A DNA stretch of 63,881 nucleotides, counting the filler, from Collodictyon triciliatum (lineage: Eukaryota): the NCBI GenBank assembly GCA_043381765.1. It is 15 parts of 15 records of this genome, joined end to end, with 100 filler letters (N's around TTAATTAATTAA, not from the genome) between each part and the next. Parts side by side here need not be neighbours in the genome. Positions count along the whole stretch, not along the records: positions 13,371 to 17,726 come from JBHJMP010006201.1; 14 more parts are not named here. The stretch is one strand, 5' to 3'. Shown one piece after another: positions 3 to 57,723 of this stretch. The position numbers and the translations under genes were made by a program. Positions within the stretch are counted from its first letter, which is position 1; each line of letters starts with the position of its first letter. A model generated the notes under the pieces. That model searched no databases. It saw only the letters and a list, made by a program, of their open reading frames with translations, and had not been told where the DNA came from.

Positions 3-3000
3 ATGGATTTCAGAGGGATTCAAATTCCAAATGCCGACATGTCACAGTCTGTTGCTGATGGTGCTGACTTCACTGGTGCCAACTTGGAGGGTGTTTTGTT
101 CTATAATGCGTGTATTTCAAACTGTGTTTTTGATGGAGCGAATATGAAAGGCGTTAATTTTGGTTGCTCGCCACTGTTTTTGGGACATACAGAGCCAGTC
201 TTCAGTGTTTGCAGTATTCAAGGACCGAATGGTGAAAATTGGCTGGCTTCTGGAAGTATGGATAATACGATACGTATTTGGGATGTAGCCACAGGAAACC
301 AAATCAAAACATTAGAGGGTCATAAAGAGCCAGTCATGAGTGTTTGCAGTATTCAAGGACCGAATGATGAAAATTGGCTGGCTTCTGGAAGTGTTGATAA
401 AACAATACGTATTTGGGATGTAGTTACTGAAAGCCAAATCAAAAGATTAGAAGGTCATACAGATGTTGTCAATAGTGTTTGCAGTATTCAAGGACCGAAT
501 GGTGAGAATTGGCTGGCTTCTGGAAGTTATGATAAAACAATACGTATTTGGGATGTAGCCACAGGAAACCAAATCAAAGAGTTAGAAGGTCTTATAGGAT
601 GTGCCAGGAGTGTATGCAGTATTCAAGGACCGAATGGTGAAAATTGGTTGGCTTCTGGAAGTGGTGATAGAATACGTATTGGGGATGTAGTCACAGGAAA
701 CCAAATCAAAACATTAGAAGGTCATACAAATTATGTCGAAAGTGTTTTCAGTATTCAAGGACCGAATGGTGAAAATTGGCTGGCTTCTGGAAGTGTTGAT
801 AAAACAATACGTATTTGGGATGTAGCCTCAGGAAACCAAATCAAAACATTAGAAGGTCATACAAATTATGTCAGGATTGTATGCAGTATTCAAGGACCGA
901 ATGGTGAAAATTGGTTGGCCTCTGGAAGTGAAGATAAAACAATACGTATTTGGGATGTGGCCACAGGAAACCAAATCAAAACATTATATGGTCATGAAGC
1001 TACTGTTGTAAGTGTTTGCAGTATTCAAGGACTGAATGGTGAAAAGTGGCTGGCTTCTGGAAGTGAAGATAAAACAATACGTATTTGGGATACAGCCACA
1101 GGAAACCAAATCAAAAGATTAGAAGGTCATGCAAATAAAGTCACAAGTTTTTGCAGTATTCAAGGACCGAAAGGTGAAAATTGGTTGGCTTCTGGAAGTG
1201 ATGATGATAATCCCTTTGATAGAAATAATGATAATACTACAATACGTATTTGGGATGTAGCCACAGGAAACCAAATCAAAACATTAGAGGGTCATAGAGA
1301 GCCAGTCACTAGTGTTTGCAGTATTCAAGGACCTAGTGGTGAAAATTGGCTGGCTTCTGGAAGTGAAGATAAAACAGTACGTATTTGGGATGTAGCCACA
1401 GGAATTCAAATCAAAAAATTGGAAGGACATACAAAACCTGTCATGAGTGTTTGCAGTATTCAAGGACCGAATGATGAAAAGTGGTTGGCCTCTGGAAGTA
1501 AGGATCGGAGACTATGTATTTGGGATGTAGCCACAGGAAACCAAAGAAAAATATTAGAAGGACATATGCATATCGTCATGAGTGTTTGCAGTATTCAAGG
1601 ACCGAATGGTGAAAAGTGGTTGGCCTCTGGAAGTGTAGATAAAACAGTACGTATTTGGGATGTAATCACAGGAAACGAAATCAAAATATTAGAAGGTCAT
1701 ATAAGTTCTGTCAGTAGTGTTTGCAGTATTCAAGGACCAAATGGTGAAAATTGGTTGGCTTCTGGAAGTTATGATAAAACAATATGTATTTGGGATGTAG
1801 CCGCAGGGAACCAAATCAAAACATTAGAAGAGCATACAGATTATGTCACTAGTGTTTGTACTATTCAAGGACTGAATGGTGAAAACTGGCTTGCTTCTGG
1901 AAGCCGTGATAATACAATACGTATTTGGGATGTAGCCGAAGGAAAACAAATCAAAACATTAGAAGGTCATACAGGTGAAATCAACAGTGTTTGCAGTATT
2001 CAAGGACCGAATGGTGAAAATTGGTTGGCTTCTGGAAGTAATGATAAAATAATACGTATTTGGGGTGTAGCCCCAGGAAACCAAATACATAGCCTGCAAA
2101 AATCAGAAATGACCAACAGTGATAAGGTCTATTTGGTCATGAAAGATAAACCAGAAGAATTCATTGCGATATTCAATGAAACAAGTGATGTGATGAACAT
2201 GATTGATACAAACAGAATAATGAATGTGAGAACTGTTCGAATTATCGGCCCAAGAACTGTTGAAGCTGTTAATACTCGTATCAATAGAGCTGAACTGGGT
2301 GCAATGAACAAGAAACTATTCCTGCAAGAAGGTGCTGTTTCCTTTGATGCGGAATTTGTTTCCTATTGTGAGCAGGGTAAGTTCACCATGTTTCAGGCTC
2401 AAATGACGGCTGAGTGCTATGAGAATGGATGGGGTGTTGAAAAGGTCACTAAAAAAGCAGCTGAATGGTTTGGAATAGCTAAGAAATTTGACAAACTGAA
2501 GCAACTTGCGCAACAACGCTCAAAAGAGGCATTCGATGTTTTGAATGAAATGACTGAAATGAAGGATGAATATAGGGAATACAAATATCCACAGGCTGTT
2601 TCTATTGTTGCTGAATGTTATGAGAATGGATAGGGTGTTGAGAAGGACACTTTACTGTCTCTTAAATGGGAAATATTCAGTGGAAAAGCTGAAAACTTTG
2701 ACACATTGAAGCAACTCGCACAACAAGGCTCAAAAGAGGCATTCAATGTTTTGAAAGAGATGGCTGAAATGGAGGATAGGATATACATATATCCACAGGC
2801 TGTTTCTATTATTGCTGAATGCTATGAGAATGGATGGGTTGTTGAAAGGGACACTGTATCATCTCTTAAATGGGAAATATTTGGTGGAAAGACTGAAAAC
2901 TTTGAAAAACTGAAGGAACTCGCACAACAAGGCTCAAATGATGCATTCAATGTTTTGAAAGAGATGGCTGAAAGAAATGATAGGAGATACATATATACAC

Positions 3001-4357
3001 CAGCTGTTTTTATTGTTGCTGAATGCTATGAGAATGGATGGGGTGTTGAGAAGGACATCACATTATCTTTCAAATGGGAAATATTTGGTGGAAAGACTGA
3101 AAACTTTGAAAAACTGAAGGAACTCGCACAACAAGGCTCAAACGATGCATTCAATGTTTTGAAAGAGATGGCTGAAATTGAAGACGAAAAATATTGCGGA
3201 TACGAAAATCAACCAGCTGTTTCCATTGTTGCTGAATGTTATGAGAATGGATGGGGTGTTGATAAGGACACCGAGAGGGCTATCGAATGGTTTGGAAAAG
3301 CTAAAAACTTTGACAAATTGAAGCAACTCGCACAACAAGGCTCAAAGGAGGCATTCAATGTCTTGAAAGAAATGACTGAAATGGAATATGGAGATGGCAA
3401 ATACAAATATCCACGTGCTGTTTCTATTGTTGCTGAATGCTATGAGAATGGATGGGGTGTTGAAAAGGACACTGTATCATCTCTTAAATGGGAAATATTC
3501 AGTGGAAAAGCTGAAAACTTTGACAAATTGAAGCAACTCGCACAACAAGGCTCAAAAGAGGCATTCAATGTCTTGAAAGAAATGGCTGAAATGAAGGATA
3601 ATGTTGGGAGATGGGACGAAAAATACAAATATCCACAGGTTGATTCTATTATTGCTGAATGCTATGAGAATGGATGGGGTGTTGAAAAGGACACCGAGAA
3701 AGCAATTGAGTGGGGTCTATTGGCTCTGAAAGCAGCTCAAAACTTTAACAGGCTGAAGCAACTTGCACAACAAGGCTCAAATGATGCATTCAATGTCTTG
3801 AAAGAAATAGCTGAAACAAAGGAATATGGAAGGTACAAATATCCGCAGGCTGTCTCTATTGTTGCTGAATGCTATGAGAATGGATGGGGTGTTGAGAAGG
3901 ACATCGAGAAAGCTGCTGCATTGTTTGGAAAAGCTGAAAACTTTGACAAATTGAAGCAACTTGCACAACAAGGCTCAAAGGAGGCATTTAATGTTTTGAA
4001 AGAAATGACCGAAATGAAGTATAAATATGGCGGATACATATATATACAGGCTGTTTCTATTGTTGCTGAATGCTATGAGAATGGATGGGGTGTTGAGAAG
4101 GACACTGCATCATCTCTTAAATGGGAAATATTCAGTGGAAAAGCTGAAAACTTTGACAAATTGAAGCAACTCGCACAACAAGGCTCAAAGGAGGCATTCA
4201 ATATTTTGAAAGAAATGGCTGATATGAAATATGATTGGAATGAAAAACACAAATATCCACAGGCTGTTTCTATTGTTGCTGAATGCTATGAGAATGGATG
4301 GGGTGTTGAGAAGGACACTGCATCATCTCTTAAATGGGAAATATTCAGTGGAAAAGC
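3..4357 (+). CDS. Pentapeptide-repeat + 14x WD40 + Sel1-like repeat protein (C-terminal part of a probable NACHT/STAND-type receptor); partial at both ends, one in-frame TAG at 2631-2633
   Basis: ORFs 3..2633 and 2706..4409 are in the same frame and separated only by TAG where every other repeat has TGG (YENG-W-GVEKD). Pentapeptide repeats at ~3-165 (DFRGIQIPNADMSQSVADGADFTGANL). 14 WD40 units of mostly 45 aa at ~183-2085 (GH..V.SVCSIQGPNGENWLASGS.D.TIRIWD). Cap motif NTRINRAELGAMNKKLFLQEGAV. Ten AECYENGWGVEKD Sel1-like units. Confidence 0.85.
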
Positions 4358-4457
4358 NNNNNNNNNNNNNNNNNNNNNNNNNNNNNNNNNNNNNNNNNNN
4401 NTTAATTAATTAANNNNNNNNNNNNNNNNNNNNNNNNNNNNNNNNNNNNNNNNNNNN
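4358..4457. other. Artificial contig-joining spacer N44-TTAATTAATTAA-N44 (first of 14)
   Basis: Identical 100-bp spacers at 4358, 8815, 13271, 17727, 22182, 26636, 31089, 35538, 39986, 44431, 48875, 53317, 57759 and 62200. TTAATTAATTAA gives stops in all six frames. Contig lengths fall from 4357 to 4341 bp. Confidence 0.98.
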
Positions 4458-8130: not shown

Positions 8131-8914
8131 TGCGGTGGTTTATACTGACGCCAAAACAATTCCAAAAATTACAACAAAATAATAACCAAAAAAACTATTG
8201 GAAAAGGAAAAGAAAAGATAAATGCTCAATAGAGTTTCCTTTCTTAAAAATAACGCTAGATAAACTGAAAGCAAAAGGGATTATGCTTGCAGCGCGCCAT
8301 CCTTGATTTGCGTACGAAAAAAAAAAAGAAATAAACTCTTCTTAAGCACAGAATAGAAAACAATAGTTACGTCCGCAGGCTATTGCTGTAAGTGAAAATA
8401 TCTTCGTGACTCTTCATCTATACATTCACTTTTTCTCTTCTATTTCTCTCTATCTTTTTGTTCTTCACTCCAATATCTTGCTAACACGTCGATACCAGGA
8501 AAAAGTGGCCATCAAGAGACCAAAAACAATCAAGCTGCCTGCAGAGAATGCTTCTTCCATTTGGTTGATACAGATACACCAAACGAATGTCATCAACAGG
8601 TCCTGAAATTGAGAAAAGCGTGACTATTCTTGTTCAGTTTATTGTTTTTTGCCTCATTCCTACATTATAAGACTCAATAGAAGTCACCAAGTCTCATCGA
8701 ACTTTTCAAATGTTGCTTATTCGACAGAGGCGACAAAGCAGCGATTGCAGCGTCGAGTGGGAAAGGTAGTAGAATCACGCAAATTATCATATCTGGCTTT
8801 CTTGTAGCATATTTNNNNNNNNNNNNNNNNNNNNNNNNNNNNNNNNNNNNNNNNNNNNTTAATTAATTAANNNNNNNNNNNNNNNNNNNNNNNNNNNNNN
8901 NNNNNNNNNNNNNN

Positions 8915-10128: not shown

Positions 10129-12972
10129 TTACTCCAAAAGAAAAAAACTCAACTGTTTTTGTCCATTTTCTTTCTTTTTTATAGCCTCATTTACCAAAGA
10201 AAGCAACCGAACGGAACGGCACATACCACTTCGCTCAACAAGAGATTGAAGCTCAGATGGCTCGAATTTTCTTCTGCTGGCTGTGTATTCTGCAAGGCGA
10301 TAAAACCCTTGACATATTCCAAGGTCTGCAGCTCTATTGTACCTTTGAAATATTTCACTCGAAGAAAATCCAACAAAATCCGCCATGGTCTTTAAAAGGC
10401 CAGGTTTTCGATTTCTCACAACATCACCCACAATCAAAGACATCACCCCTTCTGCAGCTATGTTCCGCACAGATATAATGGTGTCTAGAAGATCTCTCCC
10501 TTGGAGAATAGTATCTCGCTCGATATTCTTTTCAAAGTTGCTGAATAAAGTCATGAAATTTGGAGTCTTCAAAGTTACGTGTGCATCCCTATATTCGTTG
10601 TCATTGCATTCCTCTAAGAGATTGTGCATGCCAAAAAAAACCAATGGGTTATTTGGATTTAATTTGTTTGCCTTTATATAATACCGATATGCTCTATGGA
10701 AATGGCGAGCAGCGTGATTTTCTAGGGCCAGAATAAACTGAAATTCAACAGAATTCGAAATCTCTGCTAAGACCATTCTCCCTCGTTCATCTGAGTTGTT
10801 TCGTAGACGAAATAAATAACTGACTGCCTTTGTGAGATTTTGATTAATTACTCTATCTTTCATATGGATAGACCCGAGTGCATATAAGACATCGCCCGAA
10901 TTGTCCCGACTACTTTCCATCACACATTTTTCCATATTACCGACAACTTTCACAATCATTTCTGTGTTCTTTGTCTGATTAAAGTATTGATAGAGCTTCA
11001 AGGAGTATTCGGGAACTTTTGAGCCACATATGAGATATAGTAATCTCCGCTCAGCCTCGTCTGTCAGGCCTACCTCATAGAGCCCCCTATTATCGAAGAC
11101 AAATGAGTTCACAGACTCGTACCCTTTTGCATAGATGGCATATAGTAACTGAATTGATTTGCTATATGACTGATCACACCGTGTGCCTTCCAAGTATTCA
11201 ATACCCATGAAAAATGATGCATCAGGGTCGTCCAAAGCTGATGCTGCTCTAATTATATGTATATTGCAACTTTTCGGATTTTCTAGAACGAAACATTGTC
11301 TGAAGAGCTCAAGGATTTTCTTTTGCGCACGCAAGTGACCTGCTTGGGATGCTGCACCTAGAAGCTGAATAAAATCAAAAGGCGACTCATAATTCCCCTC
11401 TGCATTTGCAGTAATCATGTAATGTTGATAATATGCGTCGATTATCTCAGACATCACCGCTAGCTCGATAAAACGAATTCGATGCAAACCATTTAATCCG
11501 TCAAGCATGGTCTTGTAGTATTTACTAGTAAATATCTTTGCTTCATTTGAATCAACATCAAACGCAATTTCCAGTAATTTGTATGCATCCATAATACCTG
11601 TCGAGTTGACAGGGTGGGTAAGTAACTGATTTGCCTTATGAATCAGTGCCTTTATGTGCCTACTGAGAATTCCGATTTGAAGTACCTCAGCGGCTAGTGC
11701 ATGATTCCTTGAAACCTTTTTCATCAGAGTATCATAATTTTCATTCACGTAAAATAAAGAATCAGGGAACTGACCTAGAACAGCTGATTTAAGATATTTG
11801 AGACCCATTTCTATACTTTTTTGCTTTTTTTTTGGAAAGAATTGGCACTGATGTAAATGGCAATTCATCATGTAATGTGAGGCCTCTGGGTGGCCTTTGT
11901 GAGAGACCATTTGATTCAACATGTAAATGTTTTCATCGCTAGGAAGGTATAGTATGAATGAATGATAGTTGTTCATGACGAAATCTAATGCTTTTGAATG
12001 GTTCATTTCAACTGCTCTCAAAAAGTTTGCAAATGCTTTTGGAACATTACGAGGGACATGCTTTCCTTCAAATAATAAATATGCAAAGCGATAATGACAG
12101 TGGGGTATTCCAAACTCACTACATGGCCCATATAGTTCATTTATACTTTTCTTGTCAGTTTGAACATTATCGAATATTGCTTCAAGTCCCAGAAATGTAA
12201 TCGACTCCCCGATCATGAATTGAACCACGGCCGATATCTTGGGGTTCCTTCCAGGTCTCTCCAGAAGCTGATTTTGAATAATTTCGATTGCTTTCTTCTT
12301 CTCGCTACGGCGAACATGCTGAAAATCATGAGAATGGATAACCAGCATATGGTCAGAGAACAATTCCTCTGGCTCTGTTCGTTCCTGCACAATTAAGGAG
12401 TGAAGAATCTTTGGCATCACTGCATCAGGATTCAAATACATTGCGTGCGTTAGTTTGCTTAAGGCCTCACGTAAGTTCATATTTGCATAATGCTCGGCCG
12501 CGATGAGGAACAAATCTGTCTCTGAATTCATTCGCATTCTGTACAGTTTTTCTGCCTTGGGGTAGCCCTGTGAGATTGCACGCTCCAAGTGATGCATAGA
12601 GTCTAAGAAGCTTTGGTTTGTGCCTTTGCCGAGCCACAAATGGATACTGAGTTCGTAAAGAGCAGACGGCTCGTTGAATAGGGAAATAACTCGGAATAGT
12701 CTGACTAAATGGTCATCCCTCTTCAAGAATGGCCTCAAATAATTATATTCTTTGTAAACAGTATTTAGGAGGATAGGATTGAGTGATTTCTCTCGACCTT
12801 GCAAATTTTTTTCAAAGGAAGCGAGTGCCTCCAGGTGCACGGGGTCCGTTTCTTGGACTGCTTCTTCAGGGGTATGATAAAAGCTTACCAAAATATAAAG
12901 ACAAGCTGCAGATATTAATAAGCCAAAGAGAATTTTCAAGTTCGATGGATAGGATTTAAATGTGCGCATCAT
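10129..12972 (-). CDS. Intronless 947-aa Sel1/TPR-like repeat protein with N-terminal transmembrane anchor
   Basis: Long ORF. Hydrophobic ILFGLLISAACLYILVSFY near the N-terminus. Sel1 motifs ALYELSIHLWLGKGTNQS, HYRFAYLLFEGKHVPRNVPKAF, ASFFMGIEYLEGTRCDQSYSKS and YALGSIHMKDRVINQNLTKA. Confidence 0.88.
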   Translation of the reverse strand: MMRTFKSYPSNLKILFGLLISAACLYILVSFYHTPEEAVQETDPVHLEALASFEKNLQGREKSLNPILLNTVYKEYNYLRPFLKRDDHLVRLFRVISLFNEPSALYELSIHLWLGKGTNQSFLDSMHHLERAISQGYPKAEKLYRMRMNSETDLFLIAAEHYANMNLREALSKLTHAMYLNPDAVMPKILHSLIVQERTEPEELFSDHMLVIHSHDFQHVRRSEKKKAIEIIQNQLLERPGRNPKISAVVQFMIGESITFLGLEAIFDNVQTDKKSINELYGPCSEFGIPHCHYRFAYLLFEGKHVPRNVPKAFANFLRAVEMNHSKALDFVMNNYHSFILYLPSDENIYMLNQMVSHKGHPEASHYMMNCHLHQCQFFPKKKQKSIEMGLKYLKSAVLGQFPDSLFYVNENYDTLMKKVSRNHALAAEVLQIGILSRHIKALIHKANQLLTHPVNSTGIMDAYKLLEIAFDVDSNEAKIFTSKYYKTMLDGLNGLHRIRFIELAVMSEIIDAYYQHYMITANAEGNYESPFDFIQLLGAASQAGHLRAQKKILELFRQCFVLENPKSCNIHIIRAASALDDPDASFFMGIEYLEGTRCDQSYSKSIQLLYAIYAKGYESVNSFVFDNRGLYEVGLTDEAERRLLYLICGSKVPEYSLKLYQYFNQTKNTEMIVKVVGNMEKCVMESSRDNSGDVLYALGSIHMKDRVINQNLTKAVSYLFRLRNNSDERGRMVLAEISNSVEFQFILALENHAARHFHRAYRYYIKANKLNPNNPLVFFGMHNLLEECNDNEYRDAHVTLKTPNFMTLFSNFEKNIERDTILQGRDLLDTIISVRNIAAEGVMSLIVGDVVRNRKPGLLKTMADFVGFSSSEIFQRYNRAADLGICQGFYRLAEYTASRRKFEPSELQSLVERSGMCRSVRLLSLVNEAIKKKENGQKQLSFFLLE

Positions 12973-13491
12973 CTAGAGAATTCTCAACTCCCTATTTCTG
13001 TTTGAAGGTAAGCATAGTTAAATAGTATGATTTTGTGGTTTAGTTCCTTTCAAGGTCCTTTTCAAACTAGTAGGAAACTTTTTTTTTCTACTTTACATAC
13101 CTTAAAATCAACTGAATATCTCATATAGATATCAAATATGGATTGGTCATTTATGGCTGTATTTTTTTTTGTTTTTTGTTTTTGTTTTTTGTTTTTTTTG
13201 TTTTTGTTTTTGTTTTTGTTTTTGTTTTTTTGTTTTTTTTGTTTTTTTTGTTTTTTTTGTTTTTTTGTTTNNNNNNNNNNNNNNNNNNNNNNNNNNNNNN
13301 NNNNNNNNNNNNNNTTAATTAATTAANNNNNNNNNNNNNNNNNNNNNNNNNNNNNNNNNNNNNNNNNNNNTAAAAATAAAAATAAAAATAAAAATAAAAA
13401 TAAAAATAAAAATAAAAATAAAAATAAAAATAAAAATAAAAATAAAAATAAAAATAAAAATAAAAATAAATGAAAAAGGCAATATTCTGAC

Positions 13492-16400
13492 CTGTAAATT
13501 TGTTGTTTGAAAGTTCAGCGTATTTTAGTGAAGTTAGGTTCATAAAATTTGGCAGAGAACCTAATAGAATCCATAATTAGACGGTATAAATTTTGTGACA
13601 TTTATAAACATAAGTTATTTTTACCTTCAAAGTGATTGTATTGAATCGATAATGCAATTAATCTTTGCATGAATCGGAAATCAGGAAGTGTCCCTTTTTT
13701 ATTTTATTTTATTTTTATAGTGCCTCATTCAATCATAATGTTGAAATTATCTGAAATCAAATTACATTATAAAAAATATGGATGTATTATAAAAACCAAC
13801 TCAGACCTTTCAAAAAATTATTGTTTATACCAATGAATTCAATAATACGAACATTAATGAAATTTGGAAGCGCTCCTGCATTTTTAATCCAAATATTAGC
13901 AAAGGATATCATTATATTCTTTATGGAGAATATGGTGACTATTCCATTCAAATTACCTGTTAATTGATTATCCATCAGAGCTAGCTGAATAAGACTTGGT
14001 ACATTTTCGAGTTTTGGTATAGTGCCTAGAAAAGGCAATCCAAAGGTCAAAATGGCGGGAAAAAAATAAATTACTTGCTATATACTTGATATGGGAATAT
14101 AGGAATAATCACCGTTGATGAAGTTGTTTGAAAGATAGAGATATTTCAGCCTCGGCAGATGGAAATCAGGTATTGTTCCTAAATATATCCGAAAATATTG
14201 GTTTTTAAAGAAAACCTTGTTCATTTGTAAACCTAAACCAGAAAAATTCAGTTATAGCTAAAAATGAACATTTCAGTTATCAATTATGCGACAATTACCT
14301 TCTAGCCTATTGTTCATGAAGTAAATCTCCTGCAGATTGGACAGTTGGTCGAAGTTTGGTATAGTCCCTGAGTCGAAAGACGCACGATGAGTAATTTGTA
14401 ATCACCGTAAATATTGCATTTCTTGATTTTGGTCAGTTACCAGACAAATAGGTATTAAATATAGATAGCGACGTCAACGATGTCTGGTTGTACTCAGGGA
14501 TTGTTCCTATGTTTAGTAGTTTAAAAAAAAATAAAAGAAGGTAAAAATCAACGAGAATTAAATTAAATTAAATATAATAGATATTGTAATATTACGATGA
14601 TAAACCTGAAAGCTCATTATTAAAGACAATAATTTCGTTTATTGTAGAGCAGTGTAACAGTTTTGGCAGTGTCCCTGGTTAGTGTTGCAAAAATAAGAGA
14701 TACAATTTATTTATCATGATATAAAACCTATACATGAAATCAAAGACTGTGAACTTGAAATTTTCCTGTACGAATGTTTACATATACTAATGTGTGCAAT
14801 ATTGAAAGGAAGAGCATGTAGAGTAAATTATGTGCTCATTTTACCAGTGAGGTCGTTCATATCCAATCCTAGCACTGATAGAAACGGTAACTTGAACTCT
14901 GGTATTGTCCCTGTTCAAAATGCAATTTACTTTTATTTTTTAATTGTTTTCGTAACATAATTATGATTTGATATAAACGGGCACATACCCGACAGGAAAT
15001 TAGAGCCTAAAAACAATAGCTGTAGTGAGGGGCAGCTACTCATAATTGGTACGGCGCCTAATAAAACAATTATAAATTCGATAATATTGCTTTATGTCAA
15101 GAGCCAATTCTTATACACACCGTTGTGTTGATTGGCTATTCCATACATATCCACTAATAATGGCAGCTCCAAGTCTGTCGGAATGGTTCCTTTGACAAAA
15201 AGTATGTTAAAATGCTATTCAGTTCTTGATTCATCGTAAAGGCGACTGGCGAATTCTCTTTATACCAAAAAAATTAAAATACCAGAGAGCTGGTTGAAAG
15301 CGGTGCCCAGAGTGTGCATTCTGGGGGCAAACTCTACTCTAGGAAATGAGCCTAATAATTTTATGAGATATTGTTAAAAATTACAATCATTAATCGAAAA
15401 AGAAATCATATAATGCACTTAATATCTAAATATAAGGTTGCTGAAGGGATAAATTCTTTACCCGAAAGACAATTATTATGAAGATAAAGGACTTTAATAT
15501 CTGGTATATTTCTTACATTTGGGATAGTGCCTGATGTATAAATGTAAAAATTCATTAATTAAATATGTGCTCTATTACGTACAAACTATTGAGCTTACCA
15601 GTGAATGCGTTGGAATAATAGAGTATGTATATGAGAGCCGAGCTTTCTGGCCAAGGAGGAATGGTTCCTTTGAGAAAAAAAGGAAAGAATTTTTTTTGTT
15701 AGATTGGATATCTGACTTGATTAACTCACTAATANNNNNNNNNNNNNNNNNNNNNNNNNNNNNNNNNNNNNNNNNNNNNNNNNNNNNNNNNNNNNNNNNN
15801 NNNNNNNNNNNNNNNNNNNNNNNNNNNNNNNNNNNNNNNNNNNNNNNNNNNNNNNNNNNNNNNNNNNNNNNNNNNNNNNNNNNNNNNNNNNNNNNNNNNN
15901 NNNNNNNNNNNNNNNNNNNNNNNNNNNNNNNNNNNNNNNNNNNNNNNNNNNNNNNNNNNNNNNNNNNNNNNNNNNNNNNNNNNNNNNNNNNNNNNNNNNN
16001 NNNNNNNNNNNNNNNNNNNNNNNNNNNNNNNNNNNNNNNNNNNNNNNNNNNNNNNNNNNNNNNNNNNNNNNNNNNNNNNNNNNNNNNNNNNNNNNNNNNN
16101 NNNNNNNNNNNNNNNNNNNNNNNNNNNNNNNNNNNNNNNNNNNNNNNNNNNNNNNNNNNNNNNNNNNNNNGTAAAACTTCTGAAGATGAGGGAGATGTTC
16201 GAAGGACGGCAAAGTCCCTGGGTTCAGATTTCATATAAAAATAGATACAAATTGGATGTATGGATAATTTTGAAAGAGAGTAGTATAATGCAATTAATAA
16301 GAAAAGGCTCATTCCAACATCTTCACCATCCTGCACAAAATTGAAAGGAAGATTAAAAAGAAAAAAGAAAAGGCTCATTCGTACCACTGAGGCGTGAATT

Positions 16401-17391
16401 TTCTGCAAGATATATGGCGTAAAGTAGTGGAGTTTCACTGAAATTTGGTATCTCCCCTTCAATATGTGTCGCACTTGCAGATAAGAGCAAGAGGGATGGA
16501 ACGTTCCGGTAATCTGGTATAGTACCGGTAATAAAATTGCCATCGTAGACGATATATTCCAACCTGGGATGATTTATGTCTGTCAAGGTTCCATAAAGAT
16601 TGTTGCCAGAGAGCACAAAATAGGAAAGCCATGTGAGCTTTTCCAAATATCTTTCGCCTTCAGTGATGTTTCCTATGAGCATATTTTCTTCCAACAGAAT
16701 GCCAACAACCGGACACGTGTTGTTCTATGATTATCATAGGTTAATTATTACTATCGAATAGCGATTAATACGGGGATTCAAATATTATGATGATTCGTGT
16801 GTATGCAAACGCATGTGACCCATCTCAGCTTTGGGATCATTTTTCTGTATATAATCAAACACATTCATTAGATTCAAACTCACCGCTATCATCGAATCCG
16901 AGCATTGCTCATAACACTTGATACCGTACCAATAGCAGACAGGAATGGATGCATTAACCCAACCTCGTTTTTTAATCCATTTTTCTCCTCCAAAATTATA
17001 AAACAGACTCGTTAAAATATCCAAATTAGATTCAGATGTTACATTCTCTGATGTTTGTTCAAAATAAAGTCGTTCGTTGTAAGCGTGGTGATAAAAAAGC
17101 GCATTCCATCTGCCAGTTGGCTCTGATATATCCTCTTCCTGACTAACTTGGCCGCTCGTTTTGTCATCTAAATCCTCATTAATTTTGTCCATCTGATCAT
17201 GAACGAAGATGGAATTTGTATATTGCGTAGCCTTCTTGATCCGTTCGATTTGCGTCGTATTATCTCCAACATCACTGTGTAAACACATTTCACGGTAGAT
17301 GTTGCGTAGGAGAATAATGGCCTCCTCGTAGGTCAAGCTTTCGATAGTTTTTCCTTTGCTCTGACAGATTGCCTCAAGTGATGCGAGGCTG
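13492..17391 (-). CDS. Multi-exon extracellular LRR receptor-like protein (LRRNT cap followed by a one-LRR-per-exon array); partial
   Basis: Exon ~16884-17391 has the LRRNT motif (LFYNFGGEKWIKKRGW...CYWYGIKC). Exon 16385-16724 has about 4 LRRs. Partial exon 16171-16217, then an N gap. Single-LRR exons at 15599-15667, 15462-15530, 15283-15351, 15121-15189, 14989-15057, 14845-14910, 14606-14674, 14441-14506, 14299-14367, 14113-14178, 13957-14025, 13807-13875, 13625-13693 and 13492-13560. All are AG/GT bounded and read G-T-I-P-x..L..L.L..N.L. Confidence 0.92.
16299..16380 (+). mobile_element. 50-bp 5'-truncated family B retro-insertion (16315-16364) with 16-bp target-site duplication
   Basis: AAGAAAAGGCTCATTC at 16299-16314 and 16365-16380 flanks CAACATCTTCACCATCCTGCACAAAATTGAAAGGAAGATTAAAAAGAAAA. 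The insert matches the tail of the 33268-33510 copy. Confidence 0.85.
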
Positions 17392-17425
17392 CTATAGGAA
17401 AGAATGTATAAATGTTTCTTTTTTC

Positions 17426-17726
17426 AGAAATAGAAATAGAAATAGAAATAGAAATAGAAATAGAAATAGAAATAGAAATAGAAATAGAAATAGAAATAGA
17501 AATAGAAATAGAAATAGAAATGGAAAAAGAAATAGAAAAAGAAATAGAAAAAGAAATAGAAAAAGAAATAGAAAAAGAAATAGAAAAAGAAATAGAAAAA
17601 GAAAAGTACTGACTACCTGTGATGCAAATAAAATAAAAATAAAAAATAAAAAATAAAAAATAAAAAATAAAAAATAAAAAATAAAAAATAAAAAATAAAA
17701 AAAAAAAAAAAAAAAATAAAAAATAA
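17426..17726. repeat. (AGAAAT)n, (AGAAAAAGAAAT)n and (AAAAAAT)n microsatellites
   Basis: Read directly from the sequence. Confidence 0.95.
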
Positions 17727-17826
17727 NNNNNNNNNNNNNNNNNNNNNNNNNNNNNNNNNNNNNNNNNNNNTTAATTAATTAANNNNNNNNNNNNNNNNNN
17801 NNNNNNNNNNNNNNNNNNNNNNNNNN

Positions 17827-20800
17827 TGAGATTGAGATTGAGATTGAGATTGAGATTGAGATTGAGATTGAGATTGAGATTGAGATTGAGATTGAGATTG
17901 AGATTGAGATTGAGATTGAGATTGCTTTAGTGATGTTAAAATTTTAGAAAACGATGGTCTTGACTGAGATGAATTGTAAGTACCATTTACAATCAAGAAT
18001 GGTGCTATAATGTTATCGGATTCTTGATATAAAGTAATCATTCTATCATTGGCGCTTTTTTGGAACGCATCATATGTTCTTAATCTTATGGAAATCCCAA
18101 TCCTAGTATGACTAAATGTGTGAGCTTCGACAATGAATGAGCCGTTTTTTAGGCTCTCTGATTGTACAGATATTATGTCGTTTTGGTCCAATAGTTGAAC
18201 TCCTCTTATTATCTGAATTCCATAAGATGGTGAAGTTAAAAAAAGAATATCATAGCTGGTCTGAGCAGAAGAATATGTCATATCAGCCTTTCTTGAATCA
18301 ATCGTTATTCTCAAAAGTGAGTTTGTGATGGACGGGGCGATGACGTTAACATCAAAAAATCTCCATTTGTTTGCAAGAACTCTTATCAGATATATCGCGT
18401 CTTGAATTTGGAGTTTACCATTTTTGTCAGCATCCATCATTCTATATTGATATTCAGCTATTGTTGTTGTGACCATACCAGCGAGGTATTTCAAGGTGAA
18501 CTGAACATCTGCAATTGAGAATTCACAATCTCCGTCTGCATTTCCAAGGATTCTTGATGGGACGCATGTTGGTGATGTGTTTTTTTTAAGATGTATTATC
18601 TGCAAAGTTCTTCGACTATGATAATAATGTGTAGTATCTTCCTCTCTTAACTTGCTCTCTAGAACACCACCAGTTCCACATTTGATCCAAACAGCACCTG
18701 ATACAACACTTCTTCGCTCTCCCTGACCCAACCAGGATCCTATAACTGTTGTTGAAGCGTCGTTGGAAAGTAGCTTGGTTATGAAACCAGTCAAGAGATA
18801 TATTCCGTCCAACTTACATTTGAAATCTACCGTGGTAATCTCAAGGATTCCTCGGTTTGATGTAGATGGGTTTGCAGCTCCAACTATTCGGATGATACCG
18901 GGTGGGTCATTCAGAGTGACTTCAAGTTGACCTCCAGGCCAGTTTCCGCCCTTCCCGTAAGATGACACATCGATGGCATCCTTGTTGTAAGTCAAACTTA
19001 TATCTAAACTCCCTATTGGTTTTGTCCCTGTATTAATCCTCACGGGTACAGATGTGACCAACCCGATGGGCCTGTCAGTGATCGGTAGGCCTGTGGTGAC
19101 TCCTATATCTACATCCCCAATATCTGGAGCGAGGTTTGCAGCCGTAAATGATGATCCTTCGATTCCATCGCAAGTGCGTGCGGACAATTTGACAATTTTT
19201 CTAGAATTTGATATAATAGTGGCTAACCCAACATTATCTATGGTAATAGAAGTTGCATCATCGCTTTTGTACTCAAGAAGACCTGAAATTAAGTGAGCGG
19301 AGACGTATTTCGTCCCATCCCGGAAGATTACTGTGGACAGCAACCTTTGTGTTGTTTTACCTGCAATAGATGTGTATGTGGAAGGAAATGATGTTGTAAT
19401 GGTTTCTGCTTCGATACGCTCATCCAAAATACCAAGAACGATATACGCCTGTTTGTTGTAATATGAGCCTATAATCGTGATATTGCTCCAGGAACTACCG
19501 GTGGGTGATACAATATTCTTTGAAATTATTTTAGCTACATCACTTGATCTTTCAGGAATAGAAAACACAGTGTGTACCGTGGAACTTACATCGTAAAGTG
19601 TCTCATCAGAAAGAGCTATCGATAAAGAAAGCACAGAACGTTGGTAAACTTGAGTACATGTATACCGTCTTAGTTTAGTCAGTGATTGCGTATTTGAGCC
19701 CATGTAACTTGGGTACGGTGTGGAAGTCATGTTAATGGTTAAAAATCCTACAACTTCGATACTAACCCTCCCTTGAATATTCGGAGCATTCAAAACTGAT
19801 ACATAAATGCTGACACCTCCGAATCCATTACCAGTGGCTGTAATATACATATTGTTTCTTCCATTTTCTACCATGTACTGTTTGATTTGTACTAAATTGT
19901 GCGGATCTCCTGTTTGATCATCAAAACGTGTTCGAGAATCTAAGGTGTAATCGATTTGTTTACCATTTTCTAGAACACATATCACTTGTAGCATGCTTTG
20001 TGTTGGAATCCCGACAGTTGATGCAATATCACCTGTAGCTGTAATTTTCAAGTTGTTTATTGACACAAGAATTTTGATTATCTTTGGTATTTTAAGATTG
20101 ACTATCCCCAATCCTGATTTGATTACTTTTCCACATGACTTCAGAGAGACGTTTACATATTTCCCGCAGCCACTTGAATTAACAATCACACGAGGGGGGT
20201 CTCTCGATATAGACACGGCATAGTTTGATGAAGTAACCTCCAAATTTTCATAACTTGATAGCTCTAGTTGCGACCCATCTGAGAAGATGGCATATGTGAT
20301 TATACGACCTTCCATATTCTCAGAGTTTAGATTTTGCTCTATTCTAACTCTCAATACACCAATAGAACTTGGTCTGAATCCCCCATTCGGTGATACTATG
20401 GTAGGTCTTATGTCTGTGATGATAATTGGATGTATTTTCTCCACAGTAACATAGCTATCGCTGACCACAATTTGAAGAATATTTGATGTATAGCCCTTTA
20501 GTCTTAATGTCGACACTCCAGGACTTCTCCCCTGGATCGTCATATTACTCACGTCAATCACATTTTCATCAGATACGGAGTATATAGAATATCTCGATAT
20601 ATCTGCAAGAAACTCGTCTGTCCCGCTTGCAAATGTTACGATGGCATGAATTTGACTCCATTGATATCGAGGTTTAAGACAGTCTTGCGTCTTGTAATCT
20701 TGAATGGCATTCAGTATATTATCTTCCGCCGATAAATTTGCAGGGCCTTTGGGATAATATATACGAACGCTACTACGGGCCTCTTGATACGTAATGACCA

Positions 20801-22181
20801 CTGAATCTGAACCTGTTATCTCTTTGCCATTTAATTTGATTCTGCAGCCTTCCAACGTCACCGCTGCAGTATCAGGAGTTAGGCAGATAGAGTTATTTGA
20901 AATATCTTTAACTCCTTGAAACTCATAAAACTCTAAGACTGTTAGTGGAACAGTAATAGGCTGCTGAGATATCACTGCTGTATTAACAATATACTGTTGT
21001 GTAGACCGAATAAAGTGACCTCTCACCATATCTTGTCCCACGTTCAAGAATCCTATATTGCTAGATTGAGCTATGTCACATACAATGCCATATGTGAATT
21101 CTTGCACCATTGGTACATTCTGTACATCTGTCATTTGCCTAATGGTAAAACTCACGGATCCACTTCTTTCAGCAGGAGATGAATTTGTTTTCCATGATAT
21201 AGTTGCGATTTTTACTGTTCCGGTTACAGATATGTCATTGACTCCATTTTGTCGAGTCCATACTATAGAGGCACTAGAGTCTAGGATATTCGTTGCACCT
21301 GAAAACTTTCCGTCACCTTGAATACTTGTGATTGATGCTACATTTTTTGGTATTGAGAAAACTACATTCAACCCTTCAAGAATTTTTCCGTCAGTGAATG
21401 CAGTTAACACTGTTGTGAAGGTAGAAGACGGAAGAATAGGTTGTTGTGGTAATTGCAACTTCATTCCTACCTTTGGAAGCTCAGTGTAAGTTGGTAAAGC
21501 AATCATAGTTGCAAATTTCAACGGTATTATAACAGATCCATGCGAAATGTTAGGAGTAATAGTTACATTTTTGTTTGTGAACTTTGATAAAGGTATATTT
21601 ATAGCGACCATGCAGGGTATGACGCCATCATATATGCAACTCGAAGTCAGTAGAGGATTGTCTGCTATCCAAACTGTTATTTTACCTCCTAGGTTATTTG
21701 TTTCCCCTTTAGTCCCAACAAGCCAGACTCTAACATATACCGTTGGTGAGCTACTATAAATGTTTGTCGACAATGTGATTCCACGAGGCTCCGTTGGACT
21801 GATTTTGGAAACAGTGACAGAATCTGAGAGGAATTTTATATCACCCAAATAGGCATATACTGAAGGTGGAGGAGTAGTGTCTATTATACCTGTTATATTA
21901 TAATAGTAAGTCCAGTGAGAGATAATATCCATTTTGCCACGAGTGAATCCGCTGGAAGCAGGTGCGAATTCGAATGTCAGTGCAGGCTCGATTTCTTGAC
22001 TTACCGGAACACAAAAGCCACACACATCTTTCACCTCACCATGATCGCAAGGAATTGGTAAAGACTGAGACTGAGACTGAGATTGGGATTGGGATTGGGA
22101 TTGAGACTGAGATTGAGATTGAGATTGAGATTGAGATTGAGATTGAGATTGAGATTGTGATTGTGATTGGGACTGAGACTG
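17827..22181 (-). CDS. TMEM132-like cohesin/bacterial-Ig-like protein with an additional cohesin and a dockerin; intronless, open at both contig ends (>1450 aa)
   Basis: The frame is open across the whole contig, with (SQ)n at both ends. TMEM132-type motifs: IVNTAVISQQPITVPLTV, CRIKLNGKEITG, VRIYYPKGPANLSAEDNILNAI..C..PRYQ, TYAIFSDGS and SGCGKYVNVSL..C...I.SGLG. Cohesin-like VSVPVRINTG..IGSLDISLTYNKDAIDV..NDPPGIIRIVG at ~18770-19070. Dockerin-like GNADGDCEFSIADVQFTLKYLAG...DADKNGKLQIQDAIYLIRVL at ~18367-18570. Confidence 0.85.
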
Positions 22182-22358
22182 NNNNNNNNNNNNNNNNNNN
22201 NNNNNNNNNNNNNNNNNNNNNNNNNTTAATTAATTAANNNNNNNNNNNNNNNNNNNNNNNNNNNNNNNNNNNNNNNNNNNNTTATTCACTTTTTTTTTAT
22301 TCACTTTTTTTTTATTCACTTTTTTTTATTCACTTTTTTTTTATTCACTTTTTTTTTA

Positions 22359-32994: not shown

Positions 32995-33267
32995 TTTATC
33001 ATACCTCTTCCAACGATAAAAGTTAAAAAAATATTGCAAAAATATTCTCGCGCTCGTTCATTCAGGGCAAGCAGCTACTGATTGGATTTCATAATCACTC
33101 ATTAGAGTGTCATATAAGAGTCTCAAGATTACATTTTTCCTTCCGTGATTGTATATAAATGAAGAGAAGTAATAATAATTATAATTGGTTCGAGTGTATT
33201 AGCATGGTTTCAATTATACGCGCTATTTCAATTACTAAGTTGACTGTTGAACTTGACTTTTTTTTTT

Positions 33268-33510
33268 ATTCTTCTTTATTCTTCCTTTCGATTTTTGTGC
33301 AGGATGGTAAAGATGTTGGCTTTGGTTGCTAGCCATTTTTTGCATGGACGCTACTTGGTGGCCGGGTGGCGGAGAAGTAGTCGATAGTCAGGAATTGCAC
33401 CCTGCGGTTTGGCCTGTAGCCTGGGTCTTGTGCTTACATGAGAGATACAAGGCAAGGTTTAATATCTTTCTCAGCTTTTTTCCACATGTCTCTTCTCACA
33501 GGGTTTGTTA
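33268..33510 (-). mobile_element. Dispersed repeat family B, 3' end with poly(A)
   Basis: Homologous to 5250-5475 and 16315-16364. Minus strand reads NPVRRDMWKK...YRPNRRVQFLTIDYFS.../KWLATKANIFTILHK, followed by AATAAA and an A-run. Confidence 0.75.
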
Positions 33511-56716: not shown

Positions 56717-57603
56717 TTAGCTTGTTGCACAGTTTCCAGAGCCTGCCCTATCGAACTTCTGCTGGGCTACAAGGTCACCTGCATCGGCAGCTTTACCGTA
56801 CCAAGCCATCGCACTTCGAAGGTTTTTCATCGTGCCGAGGCCTTTGGCAAAGCATTCTGCAACATTTCTCATGGCCTCTGCGTGTCCCTGGTTGGCTGCA
56901 AGCTTATACCAATCGAACGCTTGTGCCATATCCTTTGGTACACCTTTGCCTGTCGCGTAGCGTGTTCCCATAATGAATTGGGCCTCTCGGTCGCCATTAT
57001 CAAAGATAAATTGGCATAAATCTGTCCGTACGTCGATTGTTGGGGCGAACTCTGCATCTTTGGCCTGTGTGATAATAGATGTGGTTTTCGTCGGAGAGGG
57101 TAGCGTTTCGCTTAAGGGGTTATCTGGTCTAGGGTGTCCTTGTGTTGTTAGATTCACTTGGTAGCTCTTTTGGCTTCCAGCTTGTCGGAACCTTGTGATG
57201 GCTTCCGTTTTATCTTTTGCAACACCGTAACCCTCACGAAACATCAGTCCCATCATTCGTTGAGAATATGAATGACCCACATCTGATGCTTTTTGGTACC
57301 ACTTTGCGGCTGTACCGTAGTCTCTGGTGAGAAGGGTTCCCTGGAAATAGATGTCACCGAGTTTTGCAAAGGCGTCAATAAGCCCATGGTCACCACATAT
57401 TTTCAAATGCTCCACAGCAGCATCGGCATTTGGTTTCGTTCCTATACCATCCAGCAGGCACAAAGCCATTTGATAGCGAGAGCGAGTGTGGTTCTTCTTT
57501 GCGCCTAGCTTGAACAAACCAAAAGCCAGCTGGTAGAGAGGAGTATCTTGATGATTCTCAACCATCCTTGGAGTACTCGGACTAGATGATTGCCCAAAAG
57601 AAC
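56717..57603 (-). CDS. Sel1-like repeat protein, terminal exon
   Basis: Canonical SLR motifs AFAKLGDIYFQGTLLTRDYGTAAKWYQKASDVGH and AQFIMGTRYATGKGVPKDMAQAFDWYKLAANQGH. Confidence 0.92.
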
Positions 57604-57723
57604 CTTGAAATTAAGGTGAATTGTTATTGGTATTTTGAGAATACGAACACACCACATGAATTACGAACTCCAGAGTTCGGTTGAAATTAAAAAAAAAAGA
57701 AAAAAAGAAAAAAAGAAAAAAAG

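Follow-up and report, generated by a model that had tools for sequence, protein, structure and literature searches.

Exon-per-LRR arrays have been published for rice (PMC3050792), brown algae (PMC3341825, PMC11378527), and Tetrahymena (PMC6564038), and also for human NLRs (PMC6642158). The introns of rice LRR kinases are in phase 2 and split the codon for the first Leu of xxLxLxx; the exons are mostly 72 nt long (PMC3050792). Brown-algal LRR exons measure 72 bp and are also in phase 2 (PMC11378527). Recent shuffling in brown algae is seen in recently duplicated genes that carry 13 versus 17 LRR exons; in addition, intact exons lie on the non-coding strand, non-coding exons lie in introns, and splice variants have been annotated (PMC3341825, PMC11378527). 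Shuffling, alternative splicing, and the idea of a receptor repertoire were all proposed for these algal genes (PMC3341825, PMC11378527). Tetrahymena LRR genes have exons of exactly 90 bp with phase-2 introns, a layout attributed to clonal expansion of the exon-plus-intron unit (PMC6564038). Vertebrate NLRs, which are cytosolic sensors, have exons of 171 bp, each encoding two RI-type repeats of 28/29 residues (PMC6642158). Gonadotropin receptor introns are in phase 2 (as cited in PMC11378527). Genes with one LRR per exon turn up in widely separated lineages, and each time the layout has been taken as raw material for diversifying receptors; one lineage is added here.

The window, i.e., the whole stretch of DNA that was analyzed, comprises 63,881 nucleotides from the protist Collodictyon triciliatum and contains such an array on the minus strand of contig JBHJMP010006201.1. 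The layout is already known; here only the exon size, phase 1, and the position of the intron in the Gly codon differ. The plant and brown-algal precedents that the earlier note named do exist (PMC3341825, PMC11378527, PMC3050792). With plant ERECTA/ERL and rice LRR kinases, the locus shares the LxxLxLxxNxLxGxIP chemistry, an LRRNT-like cap, and a run of short one-repeat exons whose intron position and phase are fixed (PMC3050792). However, the rice report describes phase 2 and mostly 72 nt (PMC3050792), whereas the introns here split the Gly codon of GxIP in phase 1, and the exons have 66/69 nt for 22/23 residues. Because intron phase, intron position, and exon size differ from those of the rice LRR kinases, the cassette structures probably arose independently.

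The ROCO and LRR-kinase genes of Ectocarpus and Saccharina are similar in having tandem one-LRR exons in a eukaryote that is neither plant nor animal (PMC3341825, PMC11378527). In contrast to the brown-algal ROCO genes, 72-bp phase-2 exons are absent here, signs of recent shuffling were not found, and a ROC-COR domain is not visible in the fragment. The 90-bp arrays of Tetrahymena likewise occur in a protist and combine exactly sized LRR exons with one uniform intron phase, but the exons here have 66/69 nt, phase 1, and 22/23 residues (PMC6564038). Vertebrate modular LRR genes (NLRs, PMC6642158; gonadotropin receptors, as cited in PMC11378527) share the strict exonic modularity of the LRRs, with the border at the same point of the repeat, so that skipping in frame is possible. 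In all four published cases (rice, brown algae, Tetrahymena, and vertebrates), the introns either are in phase 2 or lie in the beta-strand. None of these matches a phase-1 intron in the Gly codon of GxIP, which argues that the modular layout arises repeatedly through duplication of whatever unit is at hand. Among the literature matches listed, none describes 66/69-bp phase-1 LRR cassettes, which is a weak negative.

Limits of the gene fragment

The window is a chain of contigs of ~4.36 kb, joined end to end via 14 artificial linkers that lie ~4.45 kb apart. One linker between concatenated contigs (44 N + TTAATTAATTAA + 44 N; no strand) occupies 13271..13370 and a second one 17727-17826. As the window consists of concatenated contigs, the gene is cut off at both ends, and the flanking ORFs are no true neighbors. 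On the minus strand, the intron that follows the last cassette begins at 13491 and runs into an (AAAAT)n microsatellite before the contig ends (13371..13491). The gene lacks its 3' part beyond 13371, where the contig ends inside this intron; extension in the 3' direction is therefore impossible within the window, and any TM or kinase part would lie beyond reach. Two metagenome scans gave no extension of the gene; in one of them, an exact 28-mer of the last cassette had no match in metagenome contigs.

The array is interrupted by an assembly gap of 436 N (15735..16170; no strand), which, if its size is real, would leave space for about two further cassettes at the mean unit of 155 nt. In its long ORFs, the assembly uses the standard stop codons. 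Rfam and tRNA scans of the window returned no match, and the 1411-aa ORF of the next contig had no homologues at E<=1e-3.

Exons upstream of the array

Exon A (16884..17393, minus strand) is an open frame that begins with a region lacking detectable relatives and continues into an LRRNT-like cap with a W..C.W.G..C motif; its match to LRRNT_2 (E 0.087) is below the cutoff. Its 3' end (16884) is set by a joint (16724>16884) in the contigs of a public sequencing run, X6, described below. At the 5' end, the AG at 17393-17392 probably marks the border. The X6 contig 19 match ends at 17393, with 126 further letters in the 5' direction, and the compared stretch is only 7 bases longer; with just these 7 bases available for comparison, this border is weak. 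The exon A protein had no matches among longer proteins, none of 47 pattern matches in metagenome contigs was a confirmed relative, and the ESM Atlas provided no usable match.

Exon A is followed by a phase-0 GT..AG intron of 159 nt (16725..16883, minus strand), which corresponds to an X6 joint that "skips 159" (side 160; CT..AC ends on the plus strand). Exon B (16385..16724, minus strand; 340 nt) has no internal introns and encodes four whole LRRs, each bounded by GxxP, as well as the beta-strand of one more, in agreement with the earlier statement that the first four or so LRRs share one ordinary exon. It ends in phase 1, inside a Gly codon. The intron predicted downstream of it (16218..16384, minus strand; 167 nt) has GT at 16384-16383 and AG at 16219-16218, and no X6 joint is listed for it.

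The cassette array

A mechanical scan of the minus strand for open phase-1 frames flanked as AG|exon|GT yielded 14 complete cassette exons; with one further exon cut by the gap, all lie in 13492-16217, just as the earlier note had counted them. The gap-cut exon (16171..16217, minus strand) is visible over 47 nt, 5' of the 436-N gap. In a contig from metagenome run X2, which over 121 nt departs from the window by 4 letters and one gap, a loose end before 16171, read by hand, extends this exon in frame by 22 nt to a GT; with that extension, it would also be a 69-nt cassette.

Counting from the gap in the direction of transcription, all on the minus strand, cassettes 1 to 5 lie at 15599..15667, 15462..15530, 15283..15351, 15121..15189, and 14989..15057 (69 nt each), followed by cassette 6 at 14845..14910 (66 nt), cassette 7 at 14606..14674 (69 nt), cassette 8 at 14441..14506 (66 nt), cassette 9 at 14299..14367 (69 nt), and cassette 10 at 14113..14178 (66 nt). 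Cassettes 11 to 14 again have 69 nt each (13957..14025, 13807..13875, 13625..13693, and 13492..13560). The scan gave the positions of all of these, and the GT donor behind cassette 14 shows that the gene continues. As had been claimed, the exons are exactly 66 nt (3 of 14) or 69 nt (11 of 14), and each is cut in a Gly codon. All 14 have the form AG|G...G|GT with phase 1 on both sides; since every cassette ends in G and starts with G followed by any base, the split codon is always GGN, i.e., Gly. A strict cassette pattern matched nine times in the window, always in the array, and not once in any of 20 shuffles.

The cassettes have diverged strongly. Exon-to-exon DNA identity is 0.58, compared to 0.54 for shuffled sequences, and reaches at most 0.68; it does not fall with distance in the array, and neighbors are no closer than distant exons. 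A cassette HMM run over all six frames of the array, introns included, found no extra, antisense, or decayed cassettes, and the other contigs of the window contain no such exons by either the strict pattern or the HMM. One HMM match outside the array (33182-33220; 9.3 bits, E 0.25) was rejected as an LRR exon; a copy of a dispersed repeat lies nearby.

The 13 introns from cassette 1 to cassette 14 measure 68, 110, 93, 63, 78, 170, 99, 73, 120, 87, 81, 113, and 64 nt. They are as dissimilar as the earlier note had them, with an intron-to-intron identity of 0.52 versus 0.50 for shuffled sequences. The intron position is identical, down to the base within the codon, at all 15 visible cassette junctions. 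The sequence just ahead of the donor differs among them (CTG, CGG, ACG, CAG, and AAG). In-frame stops occur in 12 of the 13 introns, which must therefore be removed; only intron 11 (81 nt) is open in frame. Seven of the 13 intron lengths are multiples of three, which is indistinguishable from chance.

Repeat type and protein relatives

The fragment encodes at least 20 visible repeats with the pattern LxxLxLxxNxLxGxIP, and the cassette repeats are plant-type "GxIP" LRRs with a period of 22/23 residues. Aligning the 14 cassettes gave the consensus GTIPxxxxxPxLxxLxxxNNxLx. The scaffold is retained, as had been noted: G and P are present in 14/14 cassettes and N in 13/14, L/I/M occupy the core positions, and the third position of GxIP is I, L, V, or F in every cassette. 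The other columns are variable (entropy 2.3-3.4 bits). The list of variable motifs drawn up earlier is right for 13 of the 14 cassettes and left out one, NEIIVFN of 14674-14606. The plant-specific (PS) LRR class is defined by a 24-residue period. Tested against this class, the cassettes have the core LxxLxLxxNxL and the GxIP signature, but the 24-residue period is absent; the period is 23 residues in 11 cassettes and 22 in three.

Pfam searches, conducted with contiguous pieces only, remained below gathering thresholds (LRR_4 with 21.6 bits versus 27, E 2.6e-4, for exon B; LRR_1 with 15.6 versus 20.6). The LRR fold is not in doubt. Exon B has 6206 matches to LRR proteins at E<=1e-3, and all of the 30 matches that were scanned were LRR proteins, six with LRRNT_2 and none with a kinase. 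Against the PDB, exon B matched 52 sequences at E<=1e-3; TDR (7.9e-17) and ERL1 (1.4e-16) rank highest, with GSO1, MIK2, FLS2, BRI1, and ERL2 also among the best matches (E range ~1e-16 to 1e-10); the cassette profile matched 60 sequences at E<=0.01. The closest solved structures are the ectodomains of plant LRR receptor kinases. The likeness to ERECTA-type kinases that the earlier note put forward therefore holds for the chemistry of the repeats (ERL1, E 1.4e-16) but does not extend to gene structure, given the phase-2 introns and 72-nt exons of rice LRR kinases (PMC3050792).

In the full library, the best matches to exon B have 31-41 % identity, and none reaches 50 %. Among the top 150, the commonest GxIP spacing is 23 (110/150), followed by 22 (37/150). 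These matches include T9SS proteins from Saprospiraceae MAGs and transcripts of Diphylleia rotans, and 22/23-residue GxIP LRRs are common to T9SS surface proteins of Bacteroidota, to protists such as Diphylleia, and to the locus described here. The bacterial proteins differ in having no introns and in ending with T9SS sorting domains. The resemblance of exon B to the Bacteroidota and Diphylleia proteins amounts to generic repeat similarity.

By analogy with the plant LRR ectodomains that it resembles, the protein most likely forms a ligand-binding or adhesion surface. Its location would be extracellular, and the fragment itself includes no signal peptide or TM segment. The ~600 residues contain 8 NxS/T sequons, which, by a rough estimate, is about what chance would give for an Asn-rich composition; the sequons are therefore not counted as evidence for secretion.

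Splicing of the array

We compared the window to assembled (Logan) contigs of one public run, X6, whose library type is only guessed as RNA. Of the 15 predicted introns that are fully specified, 6 are missing from X6 contigs, which there contain the joined form with exact borders and GT..AG ends. The joints connect exon A to exon B and cassettes 3 to 4 (skips 93), 4 to 5 (skips 63), 5 to 6 (skips 78), 6 to 7 (skips 171, with 1 letter between, which gives 170), and 13 to 14 (skips 64); all of these are consecutive exons. The depth of the X6 bins follows the exons only. Bins for cassettes 1-2 and 8-11, part of cassette 12, and the gap-cut exon are without cover and uninformative on the use of these exons. 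Metagenome runs X1-X3, in contrast to X6, provided 151-nt pieces that include the introns, i.e., the genomic form. Given that the library type is a guess, the joined form in X6 could, formally, also be that of a DNA retrocopy.

None of the six joints skips an exon, a count to be read with the reservation that just five cassette junctions are covered and that contigs drop rare variants; minor exon-skipped forms could exist, as rare isoforms are dropped from Logan contigs. In these six joints, the data show exons spliced in order, one after the other, as is ordinary, rather than a combinatorial receptor system.

The window differs from the X6 contig in 13 codons, 11 non-synonymously and 2 synonymously, with 12 of the changes in exon A and 1 in exon B. 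Such a ratio is unlike that of a quietly conserved gene; relaxed constraint, a paralogue, or membership in a fast-evolving family would agree with it.

Origin of the array

We consider the locus to be an internal fragment of a spliceosomal gene that encodes an LRR solenoid, whose array arose through duplication of a unit, followed by divergence, and is spliced colinearly (probability about 0.8). In the protein, the LRRNT-like cysteine cap precedes a long solenoid, with the first repeats in one exon; after exon B, every further repeat length sits in a 66/69-nt exon of its own, and in each case the intron falls behind the first base of the Gly codon in GxIP. These exons most likely stem from ancient tandem duplication of one exon-plus-intron unit, with every copy inheriting the position and phase of the intron; duplication in frame is open only to units with symmetric phases and a length divisible by three. 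The copies would then have diverged to the point that exons and introns are now barely or not alignable. The introns would be removed one at a time, in the ordinary way, to leave a colinear mRNA, as seen for six of them. This duplication origin is suggested by the uniform intron position and phase, rather than by a tree.

A second explanation is that the shuffling is still going on in the germline: in a large family, unequal recombination would duplicate phase-1 cassettes, remove them, and swap them between paralogues, and so produce fast-evolving receptors. The precondition is present, as each of the 14 cassettes is in phase 1-1, with Gly as the codon at every junction. The 66-nt exons are found at alternate positions (6, 8, and 10), a possible trace of the duplication of a two-exon unit (10 of 364 placements are alike, in a post hoc count). 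In addition, 11 of the 13 codons that differ from the X6 contig changed non-synonymously, and shuffling has been proposed for the Ectocarpus ROCO/LRR genes and the 90-bp exon arrays of Tetrahymena (PMC3341825, PMC11378527, PMC6564038). However, the DNA identity of the cassettes is at most 68 % (mean 58 % versus 54 % shuffled), the introns are at the level of shuffled sequences, and neighbors are not closer than distant exons. The array also lacks cassettes on the opposite strand and decayed ones in introns, both hallmarks in Ectocarpus (PMC3341825), and such exons do not occur in the other contigs of the window. The X6 cassette bins are one contig deep, so that the run contains no paralogous cassettes at >=90 %, although X6 is a small run and this point is weak. 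We regard ongoing shuffling as unlikely.

The earlier note had gone further and envisaged a combinatorial receptor repertoire. Its premise is sound: with phase 1-1, lengths that are multiples of three, and a Gly junction that is always kept, any cassette can be skipped or duplicated in frame. Under alternative splicing, subsets of cassettes would be skipped or chosen in single cells, and one gene would produce many receptor forms, with Dscam as the extreme parallel. That any subset can be omitted in frame agrees with this, as do the skipping of a modular LRR exon in human NLRP3 (exon 5; PMC6642158) and the exon skipping reported for Ectocarpus ROCOs (PMC11378527). But the repertoire found no support here: 0 of the 6 X6 joints skip an exon, the cassettes are only ~58 % identical, there are no extra or decayed cassettes, and the introns contain no shared motifs. 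In contrast to Dscam-like mutually exclusive splicing, conserved docking or selector sequences were not found in the introns. K-mers shared between introns (k = 7-10) are within the range of 200 shuffles, and the reverse-complement matches that are common among introns are only A/T-rich 8-mers, in 3 introns per side and without a shuffle control. With k-mers at the level of shuffles and no shared complementary motif, a docking/selector system is not evident. The introns, with 63-170 nt around short exons, also present the setting of intron-defined splicing. Short introns around short exons usually mean intron-defined splicing, in which the common variant is retention and not skipping. Combinatorial splicing is very improbable on these grounds.

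Parallel intron gain, in which an intron-less LRR array acquired independent introns at the same proto-splice site of each repeat, would agree with introns that are unrelated in sequence and with the first four repeat junctions in exon B, which share the GxIP motif without an intron, but it is hardly credible, as the intron position agrees, down to the base within the codon, at all 15 visible cassette junctions, unalignable introns are expected of old duplicates anyway, and the varied bases before the donor leave no strong shared proto-splice site to account for such precision.

With what is known now, the locus is an ordinary, if tidy, gene fragment. It also calls for caution, as an exon-per-repeat layout alone is no proof of a repertoire; in this array, the cassettes are of old age, and the one line of splice evidence points to colinear joining. 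If the full genome showed hundreds of exchanged cassettes, a new protist model for germline receptor diversification would be at hand. We think it doubtful that the array belongs to a large, fast-evolving family of surface receptors in a poorly sampled freshwater protist lineage, with a lineage-specific 66/69-nt phase-1 cassette that evolved independently of the phase-2 cassettes in plants, brown algae, ciliates, and vertebrates and that, to diversify binding surfaces, is still being swapped between paralogues or spliced variably. If it did, the 11 of 13 non-synonymous codons and the lack of relatives of exon A would be the first traces of such a family.

A dispersed repeat

The predicted intron between exon B and the gap-cut exon (16218..16384) carries a copy of a short dispersed repeat at 16314-16371. 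In X6, this repeat has a depth of 403 and loose ends on both sides. A second copy in the window, at 33259-33319, is 88.5 % identical over 61 nt.

Exon array and gene anatomy

Searching mechanically for exons bounded by AG and GT that stay open in phase 1 recovered the array on the minus strand as 14 complete exons (cassettes 1 to 14 in the 5' to 3' direction of the gene, 15667 to 13492), 69 nt long in 11 cases and 66 nt in three. Every cassette starts with G plus one further base and ends with G, which gives a split GGN (Gly) codon. The 13 introns between cassettes measure 63-170 nt, with a GC content of 0.17-0.37 versus 0.26-0.54 in the exons. The strict cassette pattern had nine matches in the window, all inside the array, and none in 20 shuffles; in a six-frame search, a profile built from the 14 cassettes otherwise matched only the repeats of exon B. 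Exon B (16724-16385, minus strand, 340 nt) lies upstream of the cassettes and holds four complete repeats without introns. Further upstream, exon A (about 17393 to 16884, minus strand) carries an LRRNT-like W..C.W.G..C cap; its 3' end was set by a joint between exons A and B in contigs of the public run X6. A fifteenth small exon (16217-16171, minus strand) is cut by a 436-N gap. Here a contig from another public run, X2, differs from the window by four letters and one gap in 121 nt, and in its loose end, read by hand, the frame goes on for 22 nt and then reaches GT; the fifteenth exon is therefore a 69-nt cassette as well. The earlier note had described this array correctly (14 complete cassettes and one partial, phase 1, split in a Gly codon), although it omitted one variable motif and overlooked the concatenation of contigs.

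The 66-nt cassettes (14845-14910, 14441-14506, and 14113-14178, minus strand) each lack the same residue, at repeat column 7, and occupy alternate array positions (6, 8, and 10). They are otherwise no closer to one another in sequence; the alternation may reflect an old duplication of a unit of two exons. In-frame stops are present in 12 of the 13 introns. Only intron 11 (13876-13956, 81 nt) combines an open frame with a length divisible by three, and its retention would add 27 residues without a stop.

Assembly setting

The window contains 14 blocks of 44 N + TTAATTAATTAA + 44 N, recognizable by their N-run pattern (4358-4457, 8815-8914, 13271-13370, 17727-17826, and further ones), spaced at about 4.45 kb between stretches of 4355-4357 bases. 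The window is therefore a pseudomolecule in which contigs of about 4.36 kb, apparently sorted by length, are joined via artificial six-frame-stop linkers. Gene order carries no meaning from one side of a linker to the other, and findings extending over a linker need to be reread in this light. The LRR gene is confined to one contig (13371-17726), which also contains the 436-N gap (15735-16170), and the large flanking ORFs (10129-12972 and 17775-22229) cannot be counted as its genomic neighbors. Both ends of this contig are microsatellites; the long contig-end repeats (13140-13270, 13371-13470, 17425-17726, and 17827-17925) are (TTTTG)n-like, (AAAAT)n, (GAAATA)n, (AAAAAT)n, and (GAGATT)n. Breaks in the assembly at simple repeats account for the truncated genes; the LRR gene is cut at both ends.

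Splicing evidence

Small shares of the compared stretch were present in ten public runs, and four of these (X1, X2, X3, and X6) were compared with it. X1 to X3 are freshwater metagenomes, whose 151-nt pieces match with 0-2 differences, introns included, and thus represent the genomic form; pieces of the LRR gene fall within 13480-16291 (four without differences in X1, two in X2). The freshwater runs with such pieces come from two studies. Samples of this kind therefore contain the organism itself or a very close relative; since the assembly may derive from one of them, these pieces do not count as independent support.

The contigs of X6, an RNA library by guess only, are about 97-99% identical to the window, cover only exons, and contain six joints, which leave out 64, 170 (given as 171 with a single intervening letter), 78, 63, 93, and 159 nt between cassettes 13-14, 6-7, 5-6, 4-5, and 3-4, and exons A-B, respectively. 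All six lie at predicted borders with GT..AG ends and connect consecutive exons. Of the 15 predicted introns that are fully specified, six are thus confirmed, and no joint contradicts any. None of the six skips an exon; rare variants drop out of contigs, and there is room for minor isoforms. Formally, the intron-less form in X6 could also be a DNA retrocopy.

Divergence of the cassettes and the repertoire question

The reading we favor, with a probability of roughly 0.8, is a fragment of an ordinary LRR gene with constitutive splicing, in which the layout of one repeat per exon would be left over from an ancient tandem duplication of an exon-plus-intron unit. The earlier note had instead raised a combinatorial receptor repertoire. 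Its formal point holds, in that phases and lengths allow any subset of cassettes to be removed or duplicated in frame, and its precedents for the one-LRR exon layout were right; the repertoire itself found no support, and variation at the xxLxLxx positions is common to LRR proteins in general.

Ongoing germline shuffling of the cassettes is unlikely. The alternation of the 66-nt exons speaks for a repertoire, as does a comparison with an X6 contig (about 97% identical), in which 11 of 13 differing codons are non-synonymous (exon A, 16884-17393; exon B, at 16634), among them W>L and Y>H changes within or close to the cap motif, although the sample is small and the contig an unproven orthologue. 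This excess suggests fast evolution, relaxed constraint, or a paralogue in X6. Against shuffling, the signs behind others' proposals are absent in this array: cassette DNA identity averages 58% (54% when shuffled; maximum 68%), intron-to-intron identity is at shuffle level, amino-acid identity does not drop with array distance (0.30 at lag 1, 0.35 at lag 5), and the cassette profile found no antisense or decayed cassettes in the introns in six frames of the array. Combinatorial splicing is very improbable, since the introns share no k-mers above shuffle level and no recurring complementary motif, hence nothing resembling a docking/selector system, and no X6 joint skips an exon.

Comparison with known one-LRR exons

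The exon-per-LRR layout is of an already known kind. The exons described here are 66/69 nt and phase 1, with one repeat each and a split Gly codon, whereas rice LRR-kinases have 72-nt single-repeat exons with phase-2 introns interrupting the codon of the first Leu in xxLxLxx (PMC3050792), and the LRR exons of brown-algal ROCO genes, 72 bp and phase 2, undergo shuffling and come with annotated splice variants (PMC3341825, PMC11378527). Gonadotropin receptors also have phase-2 introns (as cited in PMC11378527). In Tetrahymena, LRR exons of 90 bp number in the tens of thousands, >96% between phase-2 introns (PMC6564038). In human NLRs the exons are 171 bp and hold two repeats, and for NLRP3 the skipping of exon 5 is proven (PMC6642158). 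The present array departs from these cases in exon length, phase, and the place where the introns fall, which suggests that the cassette unit arose independently. No description of 66/69-bp phase-1 LRR cassettes appeared among the top-ranked literature matches listed, a weak negative.

The encoded protein

Exon B matched 6206 proteins at E<=1e-3 in an exhaustive protein library (identity <=41%), led by giant LRR proteins with scores drawn from many stretches; named matches include Saprospiraceae MAG proteins and Diphylleia rotans transcripts. All 30 medium-length matches scanned for domains were LRR proteins, many with T9SS sorting, Ig, or PKD domains and six with LRRNT_2; none of the 30 had a kinase domain. 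The commonest GxIP spacing in the best 150 of the 6206 was 23 in 110, 22 in 37, and 24 in three, in agreement with the 23/22-residue cassettes. The best solved structures for exon B were ectodomains of plant LRR receptor kinases (TDR, 7.9e-17; ERL1, 1.4e-16), followed by GSO1, MIK2, FLS2, and BRI1, and the cassette profile matched solved LRR proteins of all classes. Pfam LRR models scored under their cutoffs on contiguous, unspliced pieces. The fragment therefore encodes a long LRR solenoid of the plant type whose period is shortened. Exon A had no relatives among longer proteins, metagenome contigs, or the ESM Atlas, and metagenome contig scans found no longer contig extending the gene.

Other features in the window

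A dispersed repeat of about 60 nt (16314-16371) lies inside a 167-nt intron of the LRR gene, with a second copy on another contig in opposite orientation (33259-33319, 88.5% over 61 nt). Its depth in X6 is 403, and loose contig ends occur on both sides in X1, X2, X3, and X6; either the element exists in multiple copies or it belongs to an abundant transcript.

Long, intron-free Sel1-repeat ORFs lie on three separate contigs (2634-4355, plus strand, Pfam E 1e-41; 10129-12972, minus strand, 947 aa, 4e-11; 56717-57610, minus strand, 7e-36) and may represent an expanded family in Collodictyon triciliatum. Within a stop-to-stop ORF of 1484 aa (17775-22229, minus strand), the 1411 aa scanned (17949-22181) are intron-free and flanked by (SQ)n-coding microsatellites; a word-indexed protein search found no homologues at E<=1e-3, and Pfam matches were to TMEM132-type Ig domains and cohesin. 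The contig at 44531-48874 stands out by its GC content, much higher at 0.54 (44-46 kb) than the 0.25-0.47 (mostly 0.28-0.41) of the rest of the window. Its long ORFs overlap one another in several frames, and a fragment of an ABC-type ATPase lies at 46595-47389; the contig may be of foreign origin, a contaminant, or a region of unusual composition.
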